Below, in pieces: positions 22,168 to 34,550 of a stretch of 64,000 nucleotides of DNA. The notes beneath the pieces are model-generated. The model searched no databases, was not told the DNA's origin, and saw only the letters and a list, made by a program, of their open reading frames with translations. Location of the stretch: assembly GCA_965203315.1 (NCBI GenBank), contig OZ241857.1, positions 1,440,001 through 1,504,000 of the forward strand, read 5' to 3'. The DNA is from Nitrosopumilus sp. GTDB taxonomy: Archaea; Thermoproteota; Nitrososphaeria; Nitrososphaerales; Nitrosopumilaceae. Both the position numbers and the translations under genes were made by a program. Each line of letters opens with the position of its first letter. Position 1 is the stretch's first letter.

Positions 22168-22721
22168 TTATTTTACCGTTAATGTTTTGATTAAAGATAC
22201 TCCTTGTTTCACATCTTTAGTACTTAACTCCCATCCAACCTCTCCCATCCGTGCCTCAATCTGTTCGTTACCAACACTCTTCATTCTAGATTCATTTAAA
22301 ACATAATGCAACTTTGCTGCATGTGATAATAGTTTTGGTTTTAGACTGCATGCTTTATTGCATTTTATAATCAATGTTTTGATACTATTGTAACCGTCTT
22401 TAGATTTGTTTCGATTCAAAATAAATCTTCCATCATCATTTAATCTATACTTGTATGCATTATAACGTCTTCCAAGTATTCTTTTTCATCTACAAAAGAG
22501 TATGACACCAGATCTTCTAGAGCCATTCCAACCTCTGGACTAAAAGGTCCATAAAAATATGGTCTGAATTCAGCCAGTTCTAGACCACTACACGTTTGCT
22601 GTACGAAATATGTTAGCTTTTGAATCGAAGCCCCTCCAATAATTTCATCACGGTTTTGATTTGAGCCTGATACTCCTTCAGCAATCTCGATTATTGATAA
22701 CAACGTATTATAGACATTCAA
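22168..22721 (-). pseudogene. Frameshifted YwgA/SocA-like (DUF4065-related) gene
   Basis: IQKLTYF...PYFYGPFS..V...LEDL in 22440..22721. Adding one A in the run at 22482-22486 gives EKRILGRRYNAYKYRLNDDG, in frame with 22168..22419. Confidence 0.7.
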
Positions 22722-23026: not shown

Positions 23027-24253
23027 ATGAGCGTTCAAATAGTATTGAGTAAGCTACGTTGTAGAGAGTGTAGACGCGAGTATGCACAATCTATGAGATA
23101 TGTATGTGATGACTGCTTTGGACCACTAGACGTAATCTATGACACATCTCCTATATCTGCTGATATATTTACAGGTCGTGAACATACTTACTGGCGATAC
23201 TTTGAACTATTACCCATAGAGTCCAAGTCTAATATAGTCAGCCTAGATGCTGGAATGACTCCTCTAATAAAAGCAGAGAAACTAGGTGCCAAACTAGGTC
23301 TGCGCAATCTATACATAAAAAATGACTCTGTTAACCCAACCTTTTCGTTCAAGGACAGACCAGCTGGAGTTGCAGTCTCTAAAGCAAAAGAGTTTGGTCT
23401 ATCGGCAGTAGGATGTGCATCTACTGGTAATCTAGCTTCTGCTACTGCCGCACACGCTGCAAAGGGAGGACTCGACTGTCACATCTTTGCACCTAGCAAT
23501 ATCGAGATGGCAAAGATAACTCAAGCACTATCTTATGGTGCAAACTATGTTGCAGTCGACGGTACATACGATGATGCAAATCGTATAGCTGCACAAATTG
23601 GAGACAGCCGTGGATACGGTATTGTAAACATAAACATGCGCTCACACTATGTCGAAGGTTCCAAGACACTTGCATTCGAGGTTGCCGAACAACTAAACTG
23701 GCAGACTCCTGATCAGCTAGTCGTTCCAGTTGGCAGCGGTGCGATGCTGAATGCGATATGTAAGGGATTTGAAGAACTAGAGTCGGCATCATTGATACAC
23801 GACACATCAAATATGCACATGATTGCAGCACAACCACATGGGTGTGCACCCATAGTTACAGCATTCAAGCAAAAGAGTAACCTTGTCGTACCTGTCGAGA
23901 CTCCTAACACAATTGCCAAGAGTTTAGCTATAGGTGATCCTGGAGATGGACGATATGTACTAAAACGTCTAGCACAATATAACGGATATGCTGAAGAGTG
24001 TACCGATCAAGAGATCTTGTCTGCAATAATATTACTTGCCAAGACCGAAGGAATATTCACCGAACCTGCAGGTGGTGTATCGGTTGCTGTTCTACAAAAG
24101 ATGATCCAGCAAGGAAAGATTGACTCTAATGATTGTACTGTGTGTTATGTTACTGGCAATGGACTAAAAGCAACAGAGTCTATAATGTCTGTGCTTAAAA
24201 AACCTGATATCATCAAAGCTGATATTAACGAGGTTGCAAAGGTGGTACTATGA
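23027..24253 (+). CDS. thrC: Threonine synthase (PLP fold II)
   Basis: N-terminal Zn ribbon; NPTFSFKDR, ASTGN, EGSKT, PVGSG, TGNGLK. Confidence 0.9.
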   Translation: MSVQIVLSKLRCRECRREYAQSMRYVCDDCFGPLDVIYDTSPISADIFTGREHTYWRYFELLPIESKSNIVSLDAGMTPLIKAEKLGAKLGLRNLYIKNDSVNPTFSFKDRPAGVAVSKAKEFGLSAVGCASTGNLASATAAHAAKGGLDCHIFAPSNIEMAKITQALSYGANYVAVDGTYDDANRIAAQIGDSRGYGIVNINMRSHYVEGSKTLAFEVAEQLNWQTPDQLVVPVGSGAMLNAICKGFEELESASLIHDTSNMHMIAAQPHGCAPIVTAFKQKSNLVVPVETPNTIAKSLAIGDPGDGRYVLKRLAQYNGYAEECTDQEILSAIILLAKTEGIFTEPAGGVSVAVLQKMIQQGKIDSNDCTVCYVTGNGLKATESIMSVLKKPDIIKADINEVAKVVL

Positions 24254-25569
24254 CCAACATTGTATTTGTTATACCCTCTGTATTGAACCAAGGCGGTGGC
24301 GAGAGACGTCTAGATATGTCTGTTGACTCATTATCTGCCGCATTTACAAAAGCTGTTGATGTAATGGGATCTGACTTTGAACGACGTGTTTTAGAGTCAG
24401 ATGGTACGCCTCGTTCTCTGATTAATGTGTACATCAATGGCAAGAATGCGCAATTTGTGGGCGGAATGAATTGTACTCTGCATGACGGCGATGAGATATA
24501 CATTCTACCTGCAGTAGCTGGCGGTTCTGATCTATCTGCAGAACAACTAGATCGATTCTCGCGCCAAGTGATGTTGGAGGACATTGGATATCAAGGACAG
24601 ATAAAGTTAGTCGAGTCCAAGGTATGTATAGTTGGAACTGGAGGTTTAGGAAATCCCATAACATCGAGACTAGCTGCAATGGGAGTAGGAAGTATGCGAA
24701 TCGTAGATCGTGATGTTATCGAAATGTCTAATTTGCATAGACAGACGATGTTTGATGAAAACGATATAGGCAAGGTAAAGGTCGAAGTAGCTGCTGATAA
24801 ACTACAGAGACTAAATCCATCCTGTAATGTAGAAGCTCTTGCAGTATCTGTAAACGAGTATAATGCAGCCGAGATCATACAAGGATGTGATGTCATAATA
24901 GATGCGCTAGATAGCGTCAATGCTAGATATGCATTAAACAAGGCATGTGTCGAGTCTAACATACCGTTTGTTACAGGAGCTGCAGTTGGTGTATCTGGTC
25001 AGGCATTTACTGTAATGCCTGGCTCTAGCGCGTGTTACTTTTGTCTATTTCCTAGTTTGAATGAAGACGCAATGCCTACATGTAGCATCGAGGGAGTACA
25101 TCCGTCTATACTCTCTATTGTTGGCGGAATCCAAGTTACTGAGGCTGTAAAGATAATTCTTGGTAAAGAGCCGAGTCTTGCTACTCGTATACTGCACATA
25201 GATCTTACCAATCTAGACTTTAACTATACCAAGACTAGTCGCGTCTCAGAGTGCCCCATATGTGGAACAGGAGAGATCACCCCTACTGTAAAAGAGGATC
25301 TGTTACTAGAAGAGCTGTGTGGTCGAGGTCGTGGCAAACGAACATTCTCCATTACACCTACACGTACATTTGATCTAGACATTCCTACAATAACCACATC
25401 TGCAAAACAACAGGGGTTTATAGTCGAGAATCAAGGTGATCTGGGACTATCATTGAGAAACGATCAACTAGCTGTAAACTTTATGAAACGTGGGTCTGCT
25501 GTACTAGTTGGTCCAAAAGACGAGACTGCTGCTGTTACTCTGTACAAGAGTCTATTGAATAGCGCATGA
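24250..25569 (+). CDS. MoaD/ThiS ubiquitin-like domain fused to a ThiF/MoeB E1-like adenylyltransferase
   Basis: Internal PAVAGG; RFSRQ, GTGGLG, SNLHRQ, CYFC and CPIC Zn motifs. Confidence 0.92.
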   Translation: MTNIVFVIPSVLNQGGGERRLDMSVDSLSAAFTKAVDVMGSDFERRVLESDGTPRSLINVYINGKNAQFVGGMNCTLHDGDEIYILPAVAGGSDLSAEQLDRFSRQVMLEDIGYQGQIKLVESKVCIVGTGGLGNPITSRLAAMGVGSMRIVDRDVIEMSNLHRQTMFDENDIGKVKVEVAADKLQRLNPSCNVEALAVSVNEYNAAEIIQGCDVIIDALDSVNARYALNKACVESNIPFVTGAAVGVSGQAFTVMPGSSACYFCLFPSLNEDAMPTCSIEGVHPSILSIVGGIQVTEAVKIILGKEPSLATRILHIDLTNLDFNYTKTSRVSECPICGTGEITPTVKEDLLLEELCGRGRGKRTFSITPTRTFDLDIPTITTSAKQQGFIVENQGDLGLSLRNDQLAVNFMKRGSAVLVGPKDETAAVTLYKSLLNSA

Positions 25570-25982
25570 AATTTCTGACACTTGATCTCACAAAATTAGA
25601 TTTTATAGATGTATTCAAATTTTGTTGAGATTGAGATTGTATTCAATAAATGCTCTAGTTGATATCTATTGAAGAGATCAGATAAGTGTCTTTAATGGGA
25701 TCTTTGTCAACTTGCGAGGCATGTAAGATTACTCGTAACTAAATTTCAGGTTCTAACATGTGTAAAACACCAAGTTTTTTAGTTTTGTACCCTGACTGTT
25801 TAATCTCTTGCGAGTTGAAGAGATCCATTTGAATTGGCAAGTTTTACGAATCATGAAATTATAAAACTCTTGCTTTGCGAAAAAATTCTGACTAGGAATG
25901 ATTTATTGGTCGTAGATGTGTTTCTTTTTTAACCATCTATATTTGAGTTAACTGATATATGGTATTATGTATAATACATGTC

Positions 25983-26684
25983 ATGGCAATCATATATGGA
26001 AAATCAGATGCAGAAAAAGAATTACTACGTATTTTACCAAAAGAAGTAAAGAGCCTTGAGGATGTATACAACATCAAATTCAAATTTGAAGATAGACTAA
26101 AAAACACAAAGGGATTTTGGGGCTTTATCAAAAGACGGTATTATAGATACCAGTTATCTAAATTTGAGGGACGAGAGTTTAAGATTTGGTACAAGGGAGC
26201 ATCAGGTGAAAAAAAGACATTATACAAATTACTAAAATTAAACAATTCATATCATGTTCTAGTAGGGTTGAGATATAAAAATAGACGTCGTAAAACAGTA
26301 CAGTTTGATTTTGTTGTGGTGGGTCACACAGGGGTGTATTTACTAGAGGTAAAACATTGGTCAGATTCTTATGCCAAGTCACCTGATAAAGATCCCTTTA
26401 AACAAACTACGAGAGAAGAAGACGCACTTTATGAATTATTTGGTCTTGGGTTTTATTGGGGAGGTGATTTTGCTATTAAATCAATTATATTGTCAATAAA
26501 AAATAACATATTGCCAAATTCTGATTATCAAAATATACAAACAACTGGTTTAAACAATATCTATAATATTATAACAGGAAATAGAGATATTATGTCAAAA
26601 AAGACCGTTTTAAAATTGGTAGAAAAATTGACGAGAAAATGTACTTATGAACAACATACTGAATATCAATCTCCTAATGAATAA
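25983..26684 (+). CDS. NERD-domain (PD-(D/E)xK) nuclease-related protein
   Basis: GASGE, QFDFVVVGHTGVYLLEVKHWS, DPFKQ; AT-rich. Confidence 0.85.
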   Translation: MAIIYGKSDAEKELLRILPKEVKSLEDVYNIKFKFEDRLKNTKGFWGFIKRRYYRYQLSKFEGREFKIWYKGASGEKKTLYKLLKLNNSYHVLVGLRYKNRRRKTVQFDFVVVGHTGVYLLEVKHWSDSYAKSPDKDPFKQTTREEDALYELFGLGFYWGGDFAIKSIILSIKNNILPNSDYQNIQTTGLNNIYNIITGNRDIMSKKTVLKLVEKLTRKCTYEQHTEYQSPNE

Positions 26685-27140
26685 TGAATTGTAACGCTGT
26701 ACATTCAGGCTGATGACTTTATTGTTACTAGGATCACAGAAGCACATAACACCTCTTTGTATGGTTGTTTAGTTGCACCATTTCATAAAAATACGTTGAT
26801 CAGTGGTTTACATAACTATCTCAAAGTGTACCCACACGTATTGAATTTCGTCAAAATCGTCCACTCTGGGTTGATGATGCACTCGGACACGAAAATCAAT
26901 CGTCTCATCAAAACTCATATCAGAATGTAATACTATGATATCTCACATCTTATACATGTCGGTCTCAAGGATCGCTACATTCATGAGATCAAGTATAGTT
27001 TGAGACTGACATATCAATCGTACCTGAACTGAATCATAGTAATGAACAAATCGGTTATAGTCTTTAAATACAAACTTTAGAAAGAGACATCAAATAGATT
27101 ATACATTAATGCTTAATTACAAAAATGTAGACACATAATA

Positions 27141-28769
27141 TTGAACAAACCTCATTATGAGTATCGAATAATCCAAAAGATCGATGCAGATCTACTTCCA
27201 AAGCGAGTTCCAAAGAGGATCCGTACCATCATATCTAGCATCTCGCCTGATGATATAGTATCGTCTGCATCGATTCTTACTAAATATGGCCAAGAACTAG
27301 GCGAGATAAACGCTCACTATCCAAAGAATGTGATCTCGTTTGCATTACATGCAGCATACAAGATGAATCTAGTAGAGAGATTGAACGATAATCAGATCCC
27401 AGATTGGTTCCAAAACCTCGATACAGTAGTCTATTGGTCGTCACAACTACGTGGCAGCAGATACAAGAACACAAAAGATGTAGGTACCGGAGGCACTAGG
27501 CCCGTATATCTATATCATCTATGGAACTTTAACAAATGGATCAAAGATCGAATGTTCAAGATAACTATACTAGAGGGCGCCGGCACTAGCATCTTTACTC
27601 AGCGTACCACTATGCGTAAATTTCAAACGGTTGAGGAGGTACTACGACTATTAGACCAACCCATGGTCGATCCCAAGAATGTAATTCGTATAGTTAAACA
27701 GTATCTACTTGATCCCACACATTTACACAAAAAAGCAACATACATGTCAACAATAAAGAATGCACTACAGTCTTATTTTGTAAAGAATGAACATGAAATA
27801 CACATACATTATAATCCAAAGAACTTGCACAGTACCGAATCTGAAGAGCAGAGTATGTCCCTGTCCGATCTTAGAAAATTCCTAACAGTATCCTCGGTAA
27901 TTGAACGAGCAGTGTTTCTCTCAAAGTTTCAGCGAGGTCTAGATGCATCAACACTAGTAGATCGATTCAACTTTGTTGTATGGGATCAACTGGTATCTCA
28001 CTTTGGCGATTTAGATCATACTAGGTGGGATCTCTCAAAGTGTCCAGTACCTATACGGTGCGTCAGAATGAAGACTGATTTCAAACATACTGGTTTTTTA
28101 GATCGTGATGCAATATCTGCTATAATCACATATCTGGATCATAGACAAACAAAGACTGGAAGATCTATGAGTACAAACCAACCACTATTCATAAACAAGT
28201 TTGGCAATCCAATAACAACAACTTGGATATTCCGTAGCTTTGCAAAACTAGCAAAAGAGTCTTCAATTCAAAACTGTACCGAAGTTGACGGGAAACGTTT
28301 CTACAAACTAGACTCACATGAATTACGCGATCTCTTAAAGTCGACTCTGATCGATTCTGGATGCAGACTCGATGTCGCCGAACACGTCATAGGCCACAAA
28401 CCACGTGACTCGTACGAAAAACAGTCCAAACTATATCCCGAGACTATGCGCAACGAGTATGCAAAAGCGTCCTCTAGACTGAATCTCATGTCGACATCAG
28501 TCTCTACGTCTGATCATCCTCTAGACAATGACATCCAAAACAGTATGCAAAGTATACAAACCATCACAAACTCTACAAAACAGTACACGCAACTCCAATC
28601 AACGCATGTACAAAAAGATAACTTTAGAAATATAGAATATGCAGATATCCAATCTCATATATCCAATTTACAAAATACCGTATTTGCACTAACCAAGATA
28701 TTCAATCAAAGTATGTGTGCTGATTGTAATACAATACATGTCAATCCTTGCCCAAACCACAGTATCTAG
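27141..28769 (+). CDS. Tyrosine recombinase/integrase family protein
   Basis: RMKT, PLFINKFG, SHELRD (HxxR), VIGHK...SYEK; box I reads QRGLDAS. Confidence 0.85.
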   Translation: MNKPHYEYRIIQKIDADLLPKRVPKRIRTIISSISPDDIVSSASILTKYGQELGEINAHYPKNVISFALHAAYKMNLVERLNDNQIPDWFQNLDTVVYWSSQLRGSRYKNTKDVGTGGTRPVYLYHLWNFNKWIKDRMFKITILEGAGTSIFTQRTTMRKFQTVEEVLRLLDQPMVDPKNVIRIVKQYLLDPTHLHKKATYMSTIKNALQSYFVKNEHEIHIHYNPKNLHSTESEEQSMSLSDLRKFLTVSSVIERAVFLSKFQRGLDASTLVDRFNFVVWDQLVSHFGDLDHTRWDLSKCPVPIRCVRMKTDFKHTGFLDRDAISAIITYLDHRQTKTGRSMSTNQPLFINKFGNPITTTWIFRSFAKLAKESSIQNCTEVDGKRFYKLDSHELRDLLKSTLIDSGCRLDVAEHVIGHKPRDSYEKQSKLYPETMRNEYAKASSRLNLMSTSVSTSDHPLDNDIQNSMQSIQTITNSTKQYTQLQSTHVQKDNFRNIEYADIQSHISNLQNTVFALTKIFNQSMCADCNTIHVNPCPNHSI

Positions 28770-28814
28770 TCTCAAACTTTAAAACATAAAAAACACACGT
28801 ACAATTCTCATATA

Positions 28815-30422
28815 ATGCAGTTAACGCTATCAGATATCAATGACATGATAAACAACGCTGCAATTCCACTTGGAACACTGATATCTCCTTCTAGCATCCA
28901 AGGTGGTCACATGCTGCTTCGTAACGAGAGTCAACGTAATCAAAAACTGCTAAAGAGTTTGGTCTGCTTTAGCATGAACGGCACTCCTTGTCTGGCATCG
29001 ATTGCAAGCGTTGAGACTCAGAATCCATTCATGGATATGAGATCTCCTTTGGGTGTTGGAAACATGAGCTTTATTGCAAATCGAGGACGTGTGCCTCACA
29101 CCGAAGACTCGGATATGCGATTTGTAAAGGTTCAATTTCTCACAAAACTTGACGAAGAGGGTAACAGAGAGCAGCTCTTAACTTCCCCGGATATTGGTTT
29201 AGACGTTATTGCAGCAAGCGATCAGATCTTTGAGGCATTCTATCCATTTCAATTTCCACAAAATATTGCAGTAGGTCGCTATCTTGGACGAGAACTTCCC
29301 GTGCCACTAGATGTATATCAACTAAAGACCGTTCACTGTGGAATATTTGGTGAGACTGGTTGGGGCAAGAGTGTTCTCCAAGCATTTCTTGCAGCGACAC
29401 TTGCAAGGTCTGGCTGTAGATTACTGATCTTTGATCACTCTGGCGACTATTCCAATCAAGAGACCGATGTAAACAAGATATTCTCTACTCTGGTTGGAGA
29501 GAAGGGTCAAAAGTATGTCGTGTTTGACGCAACCCAGATCCAGGCAGATCACAATCTATTACGTATAAAATTGAACAACGTAGACTTTTGGAATCATGTA
29601 TTTCAAACCACTCCCGAGTATGCAGAACGTCTAGCAATAGAGATAGTCGATCAGATCGAGTCTCAATTTCCAGAGATCAACGATCTAAAGAATGTCGATG
29701 GTGGAAGGTTTTACAACTTTGTGATGGATGCAATATCTCAAACTTGGTCAGGTCAGGGAACCATAGAACAAAAGAAGAGAATAGCAGACTCTAAACAAAA
29801 GAAGATAATACATTGGTTCGTAGACGAGATTCGACCATACATTGATAGAGATATAACCTTTGATGACGTAAAGAATACAATCCTCTCACAGACTGCTGTG
29901 GTTATAGATCTATCTGGTCCAAATATGGATGATGCAGAGAAGGCACTCTATGTAAGCAAGATAGGCAATATGATCCTTGTCGAAGGCAACAGATGTTATC
30001 CAAGATCGAGACTGAATCTTATGGTGATGGTAGACGAGGCTCATATCTATGTCCCACAAACAATACGAGATGTAGAGAACATTTACTGGATAAAACAGTC
30101 CAAGAAGACGATAATCGAGATTGCAAAACAGGGACGCAAGTATGGTCTAGGACTCTGTCTAGCAGATCAACGAATAACTGCAGTAGACAAACAAGCAATA
30201 GATCTGGGTACCTACTTTCTTGGCAAGTTAAAGATGGCCGGAGATCGAGCAAACATTCGCGAGATGTTTGGAGCAGATGAGGCAGATGCACTACGAACTA
30301 TACAAAAGTTTCAGTTTCTAGTTGTCGGTAACGCCAGTCCGCTAGAGGATGTTACAGCGCCGATATCCGTATTTGATCCATCTACAGATCTAGACCTAGT
30401 GAACAATCTACATACTCGGTGA
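28815..30422 (+). CDS. HerA/FtsK-like ATPase (DUF87)
   Basis: HCGIFGETGWGKS Walker A, IFDHSGDY, VMVDEAH Walker B, KQGRKYG, ADQR. Confidence 0.92.
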   Translation: MQLTLSDINDMINNAAIPLGTLISPSSIQGGHMLLRNESQRNQKLLKSLVCFSMNGTPCLASIASVETQNPFMDMRSPLGVGNMSFIANRGRVPHTEDSDMRFVKVQFLTKLDEEGNREQLLTSPDIGLDVIAASDQIFEAFYPFQFPQNIAVGRYLGRELPVPLDVYQLKTVHCGIFGETGWGKSVLQAFLAATLARSGCRLLIFDHSGDYSNQETDVNKIFSTLVGEKGQKYVVFDATQIQADHNLLRIKLNNVDFWNHVFQTTPEYAERLAIEIVDQIESQFPEINDLKNVDGGRFYNFVMDAISQTWSGQGTIEQKKRIADSKQKKIIHWFVDEIRPYIDRDITFDDVKNTILSQTAVVIDLSGPNMDDAEKALYVSKIGNMILVEGNRCYPRSRLNLMVMVDEAHIYVPQTIRDVENIYWIKQSKKTIIEIAKQGRKYGLGLCLADQRITAVDKQAIDLGTYFLGKLKMAGDRANIREMFGADEADALRTIQKFQFLVVGNASPLEDVTAPISVFDPSTDLDLVNNLHTR

Positions 30423-30426
30423 TATC

Positions 30427-31671
30427 ATGTCTAGTAACTTTACGTTTGACTATGAAAGTCCATATGATATATCAAATGAACTTCCAATCCCACCAAAGAT
30501 GATCGAGTCTTCCATGAGTATAATCCAAGACCAATCTACCCGACAGTTTGATGATATTCAAAGATTGGTGAGCGATATCAACGAGGCCAGATCCAAACTA
30601 GAACCGATAATTCGTCTAGTCAATACTAGTGACACGTATACTGACTTTTATGGTATAGATGGTGGACTTGGTATCTCTAATGCTACCATTGGTGGTACAT
30701 ACTCGTCTGTGGTGGGTGTAGCATATCCGGCACACAAGGCTGCCGAGTCTTACATGTTGATCGATCCAATAATAGTTCCGGCTGGTCTCGGCGCACCGCA
30801 TCAAAACTACTTTCAGATGTGGATGAAAAAGTACGAACTTGCAGTAGCTGCAAGAGCCACCAAACGAGGAGACTGTATCTTCTTTGACGGTACACTAGTC
30901 CCAACCATCTTTGCTCGGTTCTTACAGTCTGCAGCAGACTATGAGGCGCTACGTCCAGCTTTTCTGACGATGTTTCAAGATGCATTTGTAACCACAGACA
31001 AGAGATGTCTGGTAGACGAGATCCTAGACAGTAATGTTCCTATTGTGGGTATACCAAAACGTGTCCACTCTAGAAATATCATAAACACACGACTACGCTT
31101 TATGAAACTCCCTACATTTATGAGCGATCTGATGGCATGCTCTCTCTTGCTCAAGCCTGGTGAGTATATCACACCAATGGATTACAAGATGGTCTATCAG
31201 ATGCAGGCAGGAAAGAGCGATCCATTGACCGATGAGGAACTGGCACTATCCAAGCGACATTGGGATTTAGTTACAAAACTTCTCCGAGAGCCAGACGAGA
31301 TCCCAAAGCGAGCAGGACTCGATGCAAGCGTCAAGACGATCCCTTATCTTGCAGAGAATACTCTGGTTACATACTTTAAGCCGGTATCTGGTTCTATCGC
31401 AATTCGCGTCGAGTTTCTGAGACGTGACCTAGACTCTCTATCAAAGATATTGGCTACGATCCAGGCCGACTTTGACAAGGTGTCGAGACTACCCTTTTGT
31501 GTATTCATGGCGGACAAGTACTCTAAGAGCAATAGAAACATACCACGGATGATAAAGACGTCGATAGCAAACAAGCTGATCAAGATTGCACGCGAGCGTG
31601 ATGTGACTGATCCCAATACATTATGGTACATCAACGAACTATCTTCATCACTAGGGAGTCAGACCATCTAG
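30427..31671 (+). CDS. NurA-like nuclease
   Basis: YGIDGG, FFDGTL, VGIPKR, LLKPGEY, RVEF, LPFCVFMAD; lies 4 bp after the HerA-like gene. Confidence 0.82.
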   Translation: MSSNFTFDYESPYDISNELPIPPKMIESSMSIIQDQSTRQFDDIQRLVSDINEARSKLEPIIRLVNTSDTYTDFYGIDGGLGISNATIGGTYSSVVGVAYPAHKAAESYMLIDPIIVPAGLGAPHQNYFQMWMKKYELAVAARATKRGDCIFFDGTLVPTIFARFLQSAADYEALRPAFLTMFQDAFVTTDKRCLVDEILDSNVPIVGIPKRVHSRNIINTRLRFMKLPTFMSDLMACSLLLKPGEYITPMDYKMVYQMQAGKSDPLTDEELALSKRHWDLVTKLLREPDEIPKRAGLDASVKTIPYLAENTLVTYFKPVSGSIAIRVEFLRRDLDSLSKILATIQADFDKVSRLPFCVFMADKYSKSNRNIPRMIKTSIANKLIKIARERDVTDPNTLWYINELSSSLGSQTI

Positions 31672-32525
31672 AGCCATCCACGTTTGGCAAGCTCTCTCTC
31701 CCTCTTGAAGAGAAACTGTTGTACGTATCCACAGTGTGTGCCAAATCTATCTACTATTGTATTGTGTATGCTGTGATACTGTTTAGATGTGATCGTCTTT
31801 GTACATGTGATATTATAGTCTCGTTCCAAGACTCGGAGCATCCATCTGTCTATTGGAAATGCTTCTAACTTGTCTAGTGCAAATAGCATCAGACAGTCTG
31901 CAATCTTTTCTCCAACTCCTTGTATATTGCATACTAGATCTCTTGCAGTGGTATAGTCTCGTTTACGCATGTCAATCAGATCTATTGATCCATCTGCAAC
32001 ATGTCGTGCTGCATCTAGTACAAATCTACTACGGTATCCAAAACCACACTCACGTATATCTCGCTCCGATAGTGCTGCAATCTTGGCAGGCTCTGGAAAT
32101 AGCCAAAACTCTCGTCCATCAAACTCGACCGGTTTACCAAACTTTGTCACTAGATTTACTAGACATGATCGGATCTTTTGTATGCTAGAGTTCGATGAAG
32201 TGATAAATGATATCAGACACTGAAATGGATCTTGGTCCAATATTCGTAGACCTGGATACATTGCTACTGCATCAGATACTATTTTATCTCTAGTGATCTC
32301 TAGTATGATCTCTTTGATGTCGTCTCGTTGTCTAAAGAGATCATAACGTCTACCAGAGAGTGACTCGATCTCGACCGTACTGGTATTATCATCAGTATCG
32401 CTATGACTATGGTTTGTATAATAGACTTTGAGGATATCCTCTCCGTGTACGCCGTACCATGCATCATCAATCTTTTTCCAAAGAAATACCTGACCACTAT
32501 TTATCGATGCATCGATATCAATCAT
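31668..32525 (-). CDS. 8-oxoguanine DNA glycosylase (Ogg1/AlkA-like HhH-GPD)
   Basis: SGQVF.W, QDPFQCLISFI.S, GFGYR, GVGEKIADC, AFPID. Confidence 0.9.
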   Translation of the reverse strand: MIDIDASINSGQVFLWKKIDDAWYGVHGEDILKVYYTNHSHSDTDDNTSTVEIESLSGRRYDLFRQRDDIKEIILEITRDKIVSDAVAMYPGLRILDQDPFQCLISFITSSNSSIQKIRSCLVNLVTKFGKPVEFDGREFWLFPEPAKIAALSERDIRECGFGYRSRFVLDAARHVADGSIDLIDMRKRDYTTARDLVCNIQGVGEKIADCLMLFALDKLEAFPIDRWMLRVLERDYNITCTKTITSKQYHSIHNTIVDRFGTHCGYVQQFLFKRERELAKRGWL

Positions 32526-33791
32526 TCAGATCGTCACTGTCTGATCTATATGTGCTGCCTCGGCATCTAGTCCGAATCTTTCATGGATCTCTTGCGCAAA
32601 TATATTGCACGAGTCTTCATCGCCGTGTACTGTCAAGACTTTGGGGTCTCCGCGTATCTTTGATATCATCTCAAAGAGCTCGTCTCGGTCTGCGTGGCCG
32701 GAGAACTCGAACTGTCTGACCTGCGCTTGAACGTTAATCTCTCTTCCTCGTGTAGATACCTTACCTGTATCGAGCAGTCTCTTGCCAGGTGTACCTTCCC
32801 CTTGATACGATACTAGCGCAATTCCATTCTTGCTATCAAAAGCCAACTCTTGTAAATAGTATACAGCGTTTCCGCCAACCAACATTCCTGCAGGAGATAT
32901 AACAACACAAGGTTCATCGATGGCTCGCATTCTCTCTGCGTGACTCTTTATGGATACAGAGTCGTGTATCGCGTCAGTAAAGACGTCTGGATCCCGTAGA
33001 TACTCGGGATGTCTAGCTAGTATCTCGTTTACCTTTAATGCCATTCCGTCCATTAAGACTCTATGCTTAAAGTTTGCATTATGCAGTACACAAGCTATAT
33101 TCTGTGATCGCTCAACCGAGAATGATGGAATGAACAACACACCTCTTCTATCCATTACCTCGTTTGCGAAATCTATCAGATCTTGCTCCGACTGTGTACG
33201 AGGAGTCTGACTAGTCTGAGAGTATGTACTCTCTGTAATCAGTAGATCAATATCACCAATATCCAAATCTGCCGCTCGAACCATTCTAGAACCATTCGTC
33301 TTGATATCTCCTGTATAGAAGAGTCGTTTACCTTCTGACTCTACTAGAACAGTACTGCCACCAACTACATGACCTGACTCTCGTAACTCGAATGTTGCGT
33401 CACCCTTTGTGACCTGCTGCTTAAAACCAATGCCTCTTGTATTTCTCAACATGTTGTCGAGTTCGGGTATGTCGAATGGATACTGATCTCTTGCTATCTT
33501 TAACATGTCTTCTATGAGCAGTTCGCTGAGATCTATGGTAGGCGGTGTTGCATACACGTCTGTACCTCCACTAACAAACAGTGATGGGACAAATGCCGAG
33601 TGATCTAGATGTGCATGCGTTATGATTATGCCATCGATCTCTCTTGGTTTTACATGTAAGGGATACTCTGGTGGCACACCGCGTCGCCCAGGTTTTATTC
33701 CATAATCTAACAAAAGATTGGTTCTCCCACAACCTACTAGAAATCCAGATCTGCCAACCTCTCCGGCAGCTCCCAAGACTCGCACATTCAA
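32526..33791 (-). CDS. MBL-fold beta-CASP ribonuclease (archaeal CPSF-like)
   Basis: LGAAGEVGRS, THAHLDH, SGHVVG, YTGD, ESTY, FSGHAD, VHGD. TTG start at 33791 chosen. Confidence 0.92.
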   Translation of the reverse strand: MNVRVLGAAGEVGRSGFLVGCGRTNLLLDYGIKPGRRGVPPEYPLHVKPREIDGIIITHAHLDHSAFVPSLFVSGGTDVYATPPTIDLSELLIEDMLKIARDQYPFDIPELDNMLRNTRGIGFKQQVTKGDATFELRESGHVVGGSTVLVESEGKRLFYTGDIKTNGSRMVRAADLDIGDIDLLITESTYSQTSQTPRTQSEQDLIDFANEVMDRRGVLFIPSFSVERSQNIACVLHNANFKHRVLMDGMALKVNEILARHPEYLRDPDVFTDAIHDSVSIKSHAERMRAIDEPCVVISPAGMLVGGNAVYYLQELAFDSKNGIALVSYQGEGTPGKRLLDTGKVSTRGREINVQAQVRQFEFSGHADRDELFEMISKIRGDPKVLTVHGDEDSCNIFAQEIHERFGLDAEAAHIDQTVTI

Positions 33792-33895
33792 GGATCTTGT
33801 TGATATGTGGTCTATCTTAAAACCTTCGCAAAGAATTCTAGAGATCTCGACAACTTTCAAAAGCTTTAATTAATGTAAGCTAATGTTTTAAGCAC

Positions 33896-34108
33896 ATGGG
33901 AAGAAGCTTCCAAGACTGGTTAGGACAGCAAGATCAAGCTCTAGTCTCTAAAGTACGTGCTGGCGATGAGGCAAACAAACCTCTCCTAAACCAAATTAAC
34001 TGGATTTGGGTTAACAATCTGATGAATCAGAAGGCAGACCTAAATCCTTCTTCTGCAGAGTTACTCGATTGGGTTACCTCTGGTCAAATAGATGCAATGA
34101 GAAAGTAA
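33896..34108 (+). CDS. Small hypothetical protein
   Basis: 70-aa ORF with upstream TTTAATTAA box and a downstream hairpin plus T-tract. Confidence 0.75.
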   Translation: MGRSFQDWLGQQDQALVSKVRAGDEANKPLLNQINWIWVNNLMNQKADLNPSSAELLDWVTSGQIDAMRK

Positions 34109-34139
34109 ACGTGACAATCACGTTATCTTTTTGTTTTTT
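34108..34139 (+). terminator. Hairpin AACGTGA-CAA-TCACGTT followed by a T-rich tract
   Basis: 7-bp perfect stem immediately after the stop codon, then TCTTTTTGTTTTTT. Confidence 0.45.
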
Positions 34140-34247
34140 AGATCACTCGTAGACGCTAGTCTGTACTCTACAGGTACACTGCGATCATAACGGAGTTATG
34201 AATTTCAATCATAGTTTAAATAGTTAAAGTAGACTCTACTCTTTGTA

Positions 34248-34550
34248 ATGCCAATAGCAATACTTCCAGATGTCGATGAACAGAGATGTATCGGCTGTGC
34301 ACTATGTGTAGAGATTTGTACATCACTTGGTCCTGACGTCTTGAGAGTGAAACCAGTCGAAGGCTGGAAGAGAGGTAAAGCATTTGTCTTTTATCCAGAG
34401 CGTTGTATCTCTGATGGTGCATGCATCGGTGTATGCCCAACAAAGTCGATCTTTTGGATGAGACCAATGAACTATACCGCTGGACAACCAGTACCTCTTC
34501 ACCAGAATGGTGTCTTCGTTAAAGGCTGGGCAGAAGACGCAGCTCTATAG
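34248..34550 (+). CDS. 4Fe-4S dicluster ferredoxin
   Basis: CIGCALCVEIC and CISDGACIGVCP. Confidence 0.93.
   Translation: MPIAILPDVDEQRCIGCALCVEICTSLGPDVLRVKPVEGWKRGKAFVFYPERCISDGACIGVCPTKSIFWMRPMNYTAGQPVPLHQNGVFVKGWAEDAAL

Follow-up and report, generated by a model that had tools for sequence, protein, structure and literature searches.

Several systems that combine a HerA-type ATPase with a NurA-type nuclease have been described. The HerA-NurA complex of Thermococcus kodakarensis degrades both DNA strands, requires ATP in case of double-stranded DNA, and is inactive with the NurA exchange D49A; antiviral roles were suggested by the authors (PMC12977600). In Pyrobaculum, extra non-canonical NurA-HerA pairs were first noted in 2012 (PMC3396285). 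ICEth1 of Thermus thermophilus HB27 carries genes for a XerC-type integrase, a type IIG restriction enzyme, a NurA-like protein, the HerA-like TdtA, and a PF01555 methylase, and excises itself (PMC5365140). TdpABC is listed as a phosphorothioate-based restriction-modification system (PMC12914056, PMC13223576). In the accessible parts of the HerA-NurA literature searched, no stand-alone pair was found to be tested for defence and none is described in Thaumarchaeota. Here, we report on such a pair, herA2-nurA2, which is situated next to a tyrosine recombinase gene in a 64-kb stretch of the genome of Nitrosopumilus sp. (GCA_965203315.1; 2.47 Mb, 7 contigs, 99.98% complete). This stretch, C1:1440001-1504000, is referred to as the window, and positions without a contig prefix are positions of the window.

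Open reading frames (ORFs) and Pfam domains agree with the initial annotation of this locus, in which three co-oriented genes encoding a recombinase, a HerA, and a NurA were predicted at 27141-31671 with gaps of 45 bp (recombinase to herA2) and 4 bp (herA2 to nurA2). As the reading rated somewhat more likely than not, HerA2-NurA2 is considered to be a mobile module for ATP-driven, DNA-end-dependent degradation, which probably serves defence and is located beside an independently mobile recombinase.

Homology of HerA2 and NurA2

With 69.1 bits (Pfam cut-off 23.2), HerA2 matches the DUF87/HerA central domain over aa 152-386. The Walker A/B and GRKYG motifs, initially described as intact, proved invariant among 12 sequences of the HerA2 family (Walker A, G179-x-T-G-W-G-K185-S186; Walker B, D407-E408 of DEAH; G440-R-K-Y-G444), and the same applies to A450-D-Q-R453. 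A HerA2 profile matched HerA of Sulfolobus solfataricus (4D2I) with an E-value of 3.6e-15. This structure was also the top Foldseek match (E 1.8e-20) of the AlphaFold2 model of HerA2 (pLDDT 76.3), followed by HerA-DUF4297, TdpA, the HerA proteins of T. kodakarensis and Deinococcus radiodurans, and Sir2-HerA. No Pfam HAS-barrel match was obtained for the N-terminus, whereas canonical HerA has one; this region is beta-rich in the model, and the Foldseek alignment to 4D2I comprises 527 columns. HerA2 remained below the NCBIfam equivalog cut-offs of both HerA_Thermprot (68.7 bits versus 800) and HerA_antiphage, and PADLOC HerA models matched it with at most 72.6 bits, the other proteins of the locus being unmatched. 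Identity to the genome's own HerA amounts to 27-30% over only about 100 residues. Likewise, weak matches only, to canonical HerA or other HerA-like genes, were observed in 40 relatives (best 38.8 bits). As judged from sequence and model, HerA2 is a divergent HerA-family DNA translocase ATPase, presumably acting as a hexamer.

NurA2 matches the Pfam family NurA with 32.9 bits (cut-off 21) over aa 73-247, and in its relatives the match spans profile positions 2-253 of 254. All of the ten best Foldseek matches of the AlphaFold2 model (pLDDT 74.2, pTM 0.75) are NurA proteins, led by 2YGK (E 6.1e-7), and further matches include chain G of TdpAB and NurA of D. radiodurans. At the level of sequence, no solved NurA was retrieved from the PDB with the NurA2 profile, and the hhalign comparison with the genome's own NurA was not significant (probability 1.7%). 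Four acidic residues are invariant in 14 sequences, namely D78 in G(I/V)DGG, E137, D154 in DGT, and D363 in MAD. The motifs of the first three resemble the IDG and DG(S/T)L motifs found both in 2YGK and in the canonical NurA of the genome. In the latter, the C-terminal motif is GYPxxLxxAH, and the MAD of NurA2 takes the AH position, as seen in a single weak hhalign segment. With this residue set, the active site may be a variant of the D-E-D-D type. NurA2 is, by profile and predicted fold, a very divergent NurA-fold nuclease for which metal-dependent activity and a dimeric state are presumed.

A canonical nurA-herA-mre11-rad50 operon is located at C1:710870-717233, approximately 750 kb from the window, and encodes a NurA of 278 aa, a HerA of 508 aa with HAS barrel, an Mre11 of 380 aa, and a Rad50 of 959 aa. 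Using the genome's own Mre11 and Rad50 as tblastn queries, mre11 and rad50 were placed at C1:713231-717233. No match was obtained in the window, and just one weak Rad50-like match, on contig C5, was found outside the operon. Thus, herA2-nurA2 is linked to neither gene, as had been stated initially. Due to the presence of the canonical operon elsewhere, the pair of the window represents a second, very divergent one, which bears out the initial view.

A third, weak DUF87 match in the genome was rejected as HerA and assigned to a TraG/VirD4-type coupling ATPase. This protein of 610 aa is encoded at C1:449156-450988 (L003:643-2475) and followed by a second, AAA_10-like ORF; both may be the remnant of a conjugative element.

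A quick IQ-TREE search was performed with 32 HerA-type sequences. The 11 rows of the HerA2 family form one clade (SH-aLRT 99), and the six canonical thaumarchaeal HerAs form a separate clade (SH-aLRT 100). Long branches lie between the two, and the deeper joins of this tree are subject to a caveat regarding long branches. HerA2 therefore falls outside the vertically inherited thaumarchaeal clade, in keeping with the proposed divergence of the pair.

Distribution and genomic contexts of herA2-nurA2

NurA2 is extremely rare. It was detected in 1 of 41 relatives (own genome included), in 1 of 151 genomes of the genus, and in 2 of 401 genomes of the family (27 genera), the second being a Nitrosopumilaceae genome (G073) with 55% identity. 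A collection of 5.8 billion protein clusters contains 14 relatives of HerA2 with 46-98% identity, the next match having 23%, and 15 relatives of NurA2 with 45-98% identity. A NurA2 profile retrieved 22 proteins from 1.84 billion representatives (E<=0.001). Both proteins are held by three large ENA assemblies, with identities of 80-84% (HerA2) and 81% (NurA2).

The order herA2 followed by nurA2 was observed in all four loci for which DNA was at hand, i.e., in the window, in L035 (a contig of the metagenome-assembled genome G073), and in the metagenome contigs L036 and L037. The junctions are gaps of 2-6 bp or overlaps. For eight further HerA2/NurA2 protein pairs, the source contigs of both partners are of equal length. 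The three other loci differ considerably in GC content (0.33, 0.49, and 0.51). In the window, the GC content at third codon positions (GC3) is 0.446 for nurA2, which is above the 95th percentile of the genome (0.409), and 0.379 for herA2.

In case of L035, a 5.5-kb insert (L035:1728-7262) with herA2-nurA2 and several small ORFs lies between a pterin-binding gene and the IMPDH gene. These two genes are only 114 bp apart in the genome of the window, which gives the empty-site counterpart of the insert. In case of L036, the neighbours of the pair are a TIR protein, a type II methyltransferase (PADLOC, 362 bits), a DrmMI-like methylase (242 bits), an HKD-Snf2 helicase (215 bits), an MBL-fold protein, and a family-B DNA polymerase, the latter being located together with a Rad51-like gene 2-6 kb upstream of the pair. 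In the same contig (L036:8340-17979), a PF01555 N4/N6 methylase gene follows HerA2-NurA2, and a type IIG/DrmMI-like enzyme is encoded 3.6 kb downstream of the pair.

Due to its rarity, its patchiness, its differing insertion sites, and the separate HerA2 clade, HerA2-NurA2 is regarded, from comparative sequence evidence, as an accessory, horizontally mobile module of two genes. This occurrence also bears on the question of whether the pair is a back-up or specialised paralogue for DNA repair, which would resect chromosomal breaks under particular conditions rather than attack foreign DNA. End processing is the classical role of the family, the pair of the window adjoins ogg (a base-excision glycosylase gene) and a beta-CASP nuclease gene, and Pyrobaculum provides a precedent with species carrying at least three vertically inherited nurA-herA pairs (PMC3396285). 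Such rarity and patchiness, however, are unlike a housekeeping function, the pair occupies different chromosomal sites in different genomes, and an mre11/rad50 partner is lacking. Since ogg and the beta-CASP gene adjoin each other in relatives that lack the pair, this neighbourhood is incidental. A repair paralogue is thus considered unlikely.

Another explanation is that of a degraded virus or plasmid remnant, in which an FtsK/HerA-type ATPase once served genome packaging or partition and the pair is now functionless cargo. ATPases of the HerA superfamily package the genomes of some archaeal viruses (PMC6563490), and the family-B polymerase and Rad51-like genes upstream of the pair in L036 as well as the truncated HerA2 of L035 would fit. 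Yet the island of the window contains no capsid, replication, or other element genes, and a scan of IMG/VR with the NurA2 alignment yielded 0 relatives. Furthermore, the catalytic-type residues are invariant at 45-84% identity, and therefore purifying selection appears to act on both genes. This renders a functionless remnant highly improbable.

Recombinase, promoters, and insertion site

The features of the locus are compiled in Table 1. The recombinase matches Phage_integrase with 36.4 bits over aa 306-420, above the curated cut-off. Five residues (K311, H393, R396, H419, and Y425) do not vary among 16 sequences; R265 occurs in the copy of the window as well as in the consensus. The catalytic set R-K-H-x-x-R-H/W-Y is therefore complete, and the recombinase is predicted to be intact.

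Table 1. Coordinates of genes and sequence features at the herA2-nurA2 locus (positions of the window).
Feature	Position	Strand	Remarks
ThiS-ThiF fusion gene	24250-25569		Flanking gene
Accessory island (NERD gene, recombinase, herA2, nurA2)	25570-31667		6.1 kb; synteny breakpoint ThiS-ThiF / ogg
NERD-domain gene	25959-26684	+	241 aa; Pfam NERD, 53.7 bits
Inverted repeat, left arm	26994-27007		14 nt, 1 mismatch; brackets recombinase gene, span 1,788 bp
Promoter/operator-like motif	27043-27093	+	Upstream of recombinase; TGAACAAATCG-GTTA half-palindrome and CTTTAAATA TATA box (27062-27070)
Tyrosine recombinase gene	27141-28769	+	542 aa; Pfam Phage_integrase
Inverted repeat, right arm	28768-28781		14 nt; overlaps recombinase stop codon
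TATA-like TTTAAAA, candidate herA2-nurA2 promoter	28778-28784	+	Approximately 34 nt upstream of herA2 ATG, in 45-bp spacer
herA2, divergent HerA-family ATPase (predicted)	28815-30422	+	535 aa; Pfam DUF87
nurA2, very divergent NurA-fold nuclease (predicted)	30427-31671	+	414 aa; Pfam NurA
ogg glycosylase gene	31668-32525	-	Flanking gene
beta-CASP nuclease gene	32526-33860		Flanking gene, beyond ogg

The recombinase belongs to a large, multi-copy family of Thaumarchaeota with at least 528 proteins (E<=1e-20), characterised by a conserved N-terminal region of approximately 250 aa and a C-terminal Cys motif. Source names include Nitrosopumilus and Cenarchaeum, and many members are found on contigs of 1.6-2.2 kb. 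Of 40 relatives, 8 have matches, 7 of these being among the 24 relatives within the genus; a single genome contains up to 8 matches, and several matches have internal stops. A second copy in the genome of the window, 40% identical, is situated at C1:412103-413644. At nine paralogue loci, the gene sits between core genes and variable cargo, and HerA or NurA is encoded beside none of them. The cargo of other paralogue loci comprises fragments of type I restriction-modification systems, transposases, and small ORFs of unknown function.

A defence island adjoins the second recombinase copy (C1:403296-417962; L039:296-14962). It contains a complete SspA-SspB-SspC-SspD phosphorothioation module (435, 300, 957, and 370 bits), an MzaB-like HATPase, a HEC-01A/AbiL-like ATPase, a ZorD/DpdE-like SNF2 helicase, and DDE transposases.

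In the relative G009, two recombinase copies share a stretch of exactly 1,782 bp at 99.3% identity, which ends sharply on both sides and is embedded in unrelated sequences (L044:7907-9688 and L045:8069-9850). The unit consists of a recombinase gene of 570 aa with 53 bp upstream and 16 bp downstream. One of the copies abuts an hsdM gene which is truncated at the unit edge, and the missing half of hsdM is absent on the far side. A clean insertion into hsdM was rejected, since the 161-aa ORF on the far side lacks a methylase domain and exact removal of the unit leaves the parts out of frame; as read from the sequence, the junction is a breakpoint. These copies suggest that the recombinase is able to move, or to become duplicated, in the form of a single-gene unit of approximately 1.8 kb, similar to an insertion sequence (IS), and that it marks junctions of islands and rearrangements. 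This may matter as much as HerA2-NurA2 itself: the 2019 survey of thaumarchaeal mobile elements (Krupovic et al., PMC6563490) names IS families of the DDE, HUH, and serine-recombinase types, and in its accessible parts no tyrosine-recombinase IS.

In the window, a 14-nt inverted repeat brackets the recombinase gene with a span close to the length of the G009 unit. As no consistent bracketing repeat was found in nine other copies, the repeat was rejected as element ends and is recorded as an observation only.

Sequences of 33-51 nt from the promoter/operator-like motif upstream of the recombinase recur with 90-94% identity at four other sites of the genome (C1:862929-862979, C1:205732-205765, C1:831026-831058, and C5:289124-289165). 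The shared part is a palindromic TGAACAAATCGTTCA box followed by the CTTTAAATA TATA box, and an ORF (825 aa and 371 aa, respectively) starts directly after it in at least two of these four copies. Due to this recurrence of a TATA-containing motif in front of other ORFs, the repeat was rejected as an att site or element end and is interpreted as a host-type promoter for the recombinase. Possibly, the motif defines a small regulon to which the recombinase belongs. Together with the TATA-like sequence in front of herA2, a structure with two promoters is proposed for the locus, in which the recombinase probably has its own promoter, separate from that of herA2-nurA2.

Beside the pair, the recombinase was found at none of the three other loci (L035, L036, and L037). 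It appears to be independently mobile and is not a conserved part of the HerA2-NurA2 module. The initial idea that HerA2-NurA2 might process DNA for the recombinase, i.e., that it prepares or clears DNA ends for recombination, finds no support beyond the adjacency in the window and the co-presence of orthologs in three related assemblies. It is opposed by the pair occurring without recombinase at all three other loci and by the nine paralogue loci without HerA or NurA. Tyrosine recombinases, moreover, act on intact duplex sites and need no free ends. We therefore give hardly any credence to a recombinase-coupled machine.

The initial annotation placed the three genes between core genes. This holds for ThiS-ThiF and ogg, but these two are not adjacent in any of the three relatives compared (G012, G007, and G021), where the order is PALP enzyme, ThiS-ThiF, approximately 13 kb with seven conserved genes, ogg, and beta-CASP. 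Homologues of the seven genes are scattered in the genome of the window (C1:35-37 kb, 341-343 kb, and 370-373 kb), which indicates several rearrangements relative to the genus. As ThiF and ogg are not neighbours in the relatives, the island fills a rearrangement breakpoint rather than a simple empty site. At its right side, the 3' end of nurA2 overlaps the convergent ogg gene by 4 bp. No tRNA gene was found in the window and no convincing direct repeats flank 25570-31671, so that there is no indication of an att-bounded element.

Contigs spanning the island from the metagenome runs X1/X2 and X3 show 0 differences to the window; in such contigs, which stem from runs of three studies, the recombinase is in place. 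An excision joint was not seen in the assembled contigs of these runs, which cannot show rare forms. For run X5, a variant without the 1.79-kb recombinase unit was considered (74% of sampled words present) and rejected, since an identical contig of low depth covers 24012-30671 including the recombinase.

A NERD-domain gene, overlooked in the initial annotation, is situated between ThiS-ThiF and the recombinase. It is patchy: of 24 other genomes of the genus, 5 carry it, none of them at this position, and a second own copy with 44% identity is located at C1:595154. Its GC3 of 0.231 is below the 5th percentile of the genome (0.253), and a weak partial match to the MADS MAD6 kinase model was obtained. 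No NERD gene is found beside herA2-nurA2 in L035-L037. We regard it as an accessory neighbour rather than an established part of the module.

Two further observations were made in the window. Upstream of the PALP gene, a stretch of low GC content (0.329) at 22168-22721 carries two small minus-strand ORFs of 83 and 93 aa without Pfam match. At 33858-34549, contigs of metagenome runs occur at very high depth (thousands-fold in X5) and with many differences; presumably, they represent a conserved gene of other, abundant organisms.

Proposed function and comparison with known systems

In the proposed mechanism, HerA2 would form a ring ATPase, presumably a hexamer, which threads double-stranded DNA from a free end and feeds the strands to NurA2, a putative metal-dependent nuclease of the NurA fold that may act as a dimer, resulting in processive degradation. 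As the host chromosome is circular, free ends would mark incoming or replicating linear DNA as target, and defence against viruses or other invading DNA would therefore be the most likely role. The pair would operate in addition to the housekeeping nurA-herA-mre11-rad50 operon, as a second system. Complex formation of HerA2 with NurA2 is suggested by the conserved adjacency of their genes, while end-dependent degradation and the role in defence are likewise deduced. A complex prediction reached a median score of 0.31, the mark being 0.32 and each control scoring 0.00, and was used for neither side.

Several findings weigh against this reading. HerA2 scores far under the NCBIfam antiphage-HerA cut-off (43.1 bits versus 800), and NurA2 is matched by no PADLOC model. 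A clear defence island was observed at only one of the three other loci, L035 being located among housekeeping genes and L037 being a short contig; a defence-type role, as assumed initially, is thus plausible with regard to L036, and the other two loci give no such context. Across the loci, no component for distinguishing self from non-self is kept beside the pair. In G073 (L035), HerA2 lacks approximately 180 N-terminal residues, and the module can therefore decay, as it appears to do in this genome. The 4-bp overlap of nurA2 and ogg together with the lack of att repeats and of a tRNA gene points to an old, settled insertion. Concerning the independence of the recombinase, the closest relative is 73% identical over a truncated copy of 368 aa, a cluster-mate of 594 aa is 65% identical and collinear end to end, and the next-best member of the family is 49% identical. 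The closest orthologs occur in exactly the three assemblies that hold the closest HerA2 and NurA2. A lineage-specific linkage of the three genes may therefore exist, its basis being co-presence in these assemblies and not adjacency.

The claim that the pair is carried with an integrase fails as a general feature, given its absence at the other loci, the multi-copy family, the single-gene duplicate, and the likely own promoter of the recombinase, and it gains from the orthologs in the three nearest assemblies. The module as a whole is not characterised by this adjacency, which may, however, be shared within this lineage. The initial annotation had named two circumstances that would speak against a mobile cassette: that these are the only herA and nurA of the genome and of the vertical clade, which is not the case, and that the integrase adjacency is unique to this genome, which applies in part.

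If the triplet is taken as a unit, the main competing explanation is a DNA-donation element similar to ICEth1, in which recombinase, HerA2, and NurA2 would form a minimal integrative element whose motor and nuclease push or process DNA for cell-to-cell transfer. The recombinase adjoins the pair, the nearest three assemblies keep all three genes, and in L036 genes for a PF01555 methylase and a type IIG/DrmMI-like enzyme accompany the pair. In Thermus, both the NurA-like protein and TdtA are required for DNA donation (PMC5365140). However, the recombinase is not found beside the pair at any of the three other loci, and the window has no restriction enzyme, methylase, tRNA target, or flanking direct repeats. 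Moreover, the pair has the reverse order of that in the tdtA operon, separate promoters are likely, and the recombinase family duplicates as a single-gene unit. For these reasons, a donation element of this kind is considered rather improbable. That the recombinase excises or mobilises the unit while HerA2 pumps the DNA and NurA2 processes it for transfer, which would make the locus a minimal counterpart of ICEth1 in archaea, is very improbable; if this were true, no such transfer module would have been known before from ammonia-oxidising archaea.

With respect to the preferred reading of a mobile degradation module, the pair appears as a distinct and very rare clade of the HerA-NurA machine that moves between genomes with GC contents of 0.33-0.51. 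Ammonia-oxidising archaea are globally abundant, and their defences and mobile DNA are poorly known. Since the repair copy and the accessory copy are separable both genetically and biochemically, their coexistence allows the recent proposal of a HerA-NurA function in defence, and not in repair alone, to be tested cleanly in a natural setting.

Compared with Sir2-HerA and DUF4297-HerA, the locus is alike in the combination of a HerA-family ATPase with one effector gene, which is reflected by the structural matches and by the PADLOC matches of HerA2. The effector is Sir2 or DUF4297 in these systems and a NurA-fold nuclease here, so that the pair does not belong to either of them. The extra pairs of Pyrobaculum are likewise additional to the repair pair of an archaeon. 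They are, however, vertically inherited and located beside CRISPR arrays with csm6, whereas HerA2-NurA2 is patchy and has no CRISPR or csm6 alongside.

TdpABC combines a HerA-like motor with a NurA-fold nuclease, and TdpA and its partner chain (TdpAB, 8WET/8WFD) match the models of HerA2 and NurA2 structurally. The sequence similarity of HerA2 to TdpA is marginal (E 0.0011), and, as judged from Pfam domains, no tdpC-like modification gene adjoins the pair, the genes of the island having neither a sulfur-transfer nor a PAPS-reductase domain. Considering the SspABCD module of the genome, HerA2-NurA2 might be a TdpAB-like restriction arm that reads its phosphorothioate marks. SspB (DUF4007) is present in the genome of the window and absent in G073, i.e., it co-occurs with HerA2-NurA2 in one of two cases. 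A clear SspE partner was not found in the genome: two SspE models gave only a weak partial match far from the ssp locus, and the same models also match control genomes. Such a restriction arm is scarcely probable.

The ICEth1 tdtA operon resembles the locus in an integrase that adjoins a NurA-like/HerA-like pair on an accessory island, HerA2 and TdtA being compared by description. The island of the window differs in having no type IIG enzyme, PF01555 methylase, tRNA site, direct repeats, or excised form in contigs, and in the reversed order of the pair. The gene set of L036, consisting of the pair, a PF01555 methylase, and a type IIG/DrmMI-like enzyme, recalls the Thermus operon.

The canonical archaeal HerA-NurA (4D2I and 2YGK; T. 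kodakarensis 9X1L-9X1P) differs in its linkage to mre11-rad50, which is missing here, in the order of the genes (herA-nurA in the window and nurA-herA in the canonical operon of the same genome), and in the AH of NurA in place of MAD. It is part of the core genome, whereas HerA2-NurA2 is rare and, by all appearances, mobile. Both are alike in the two folds and in the adjacent gene pair, with Walker A/B and the arginine-finger region kept in HerA2 and acidic motifs of the IDG and DG(S/T)L types kept in NurA2.

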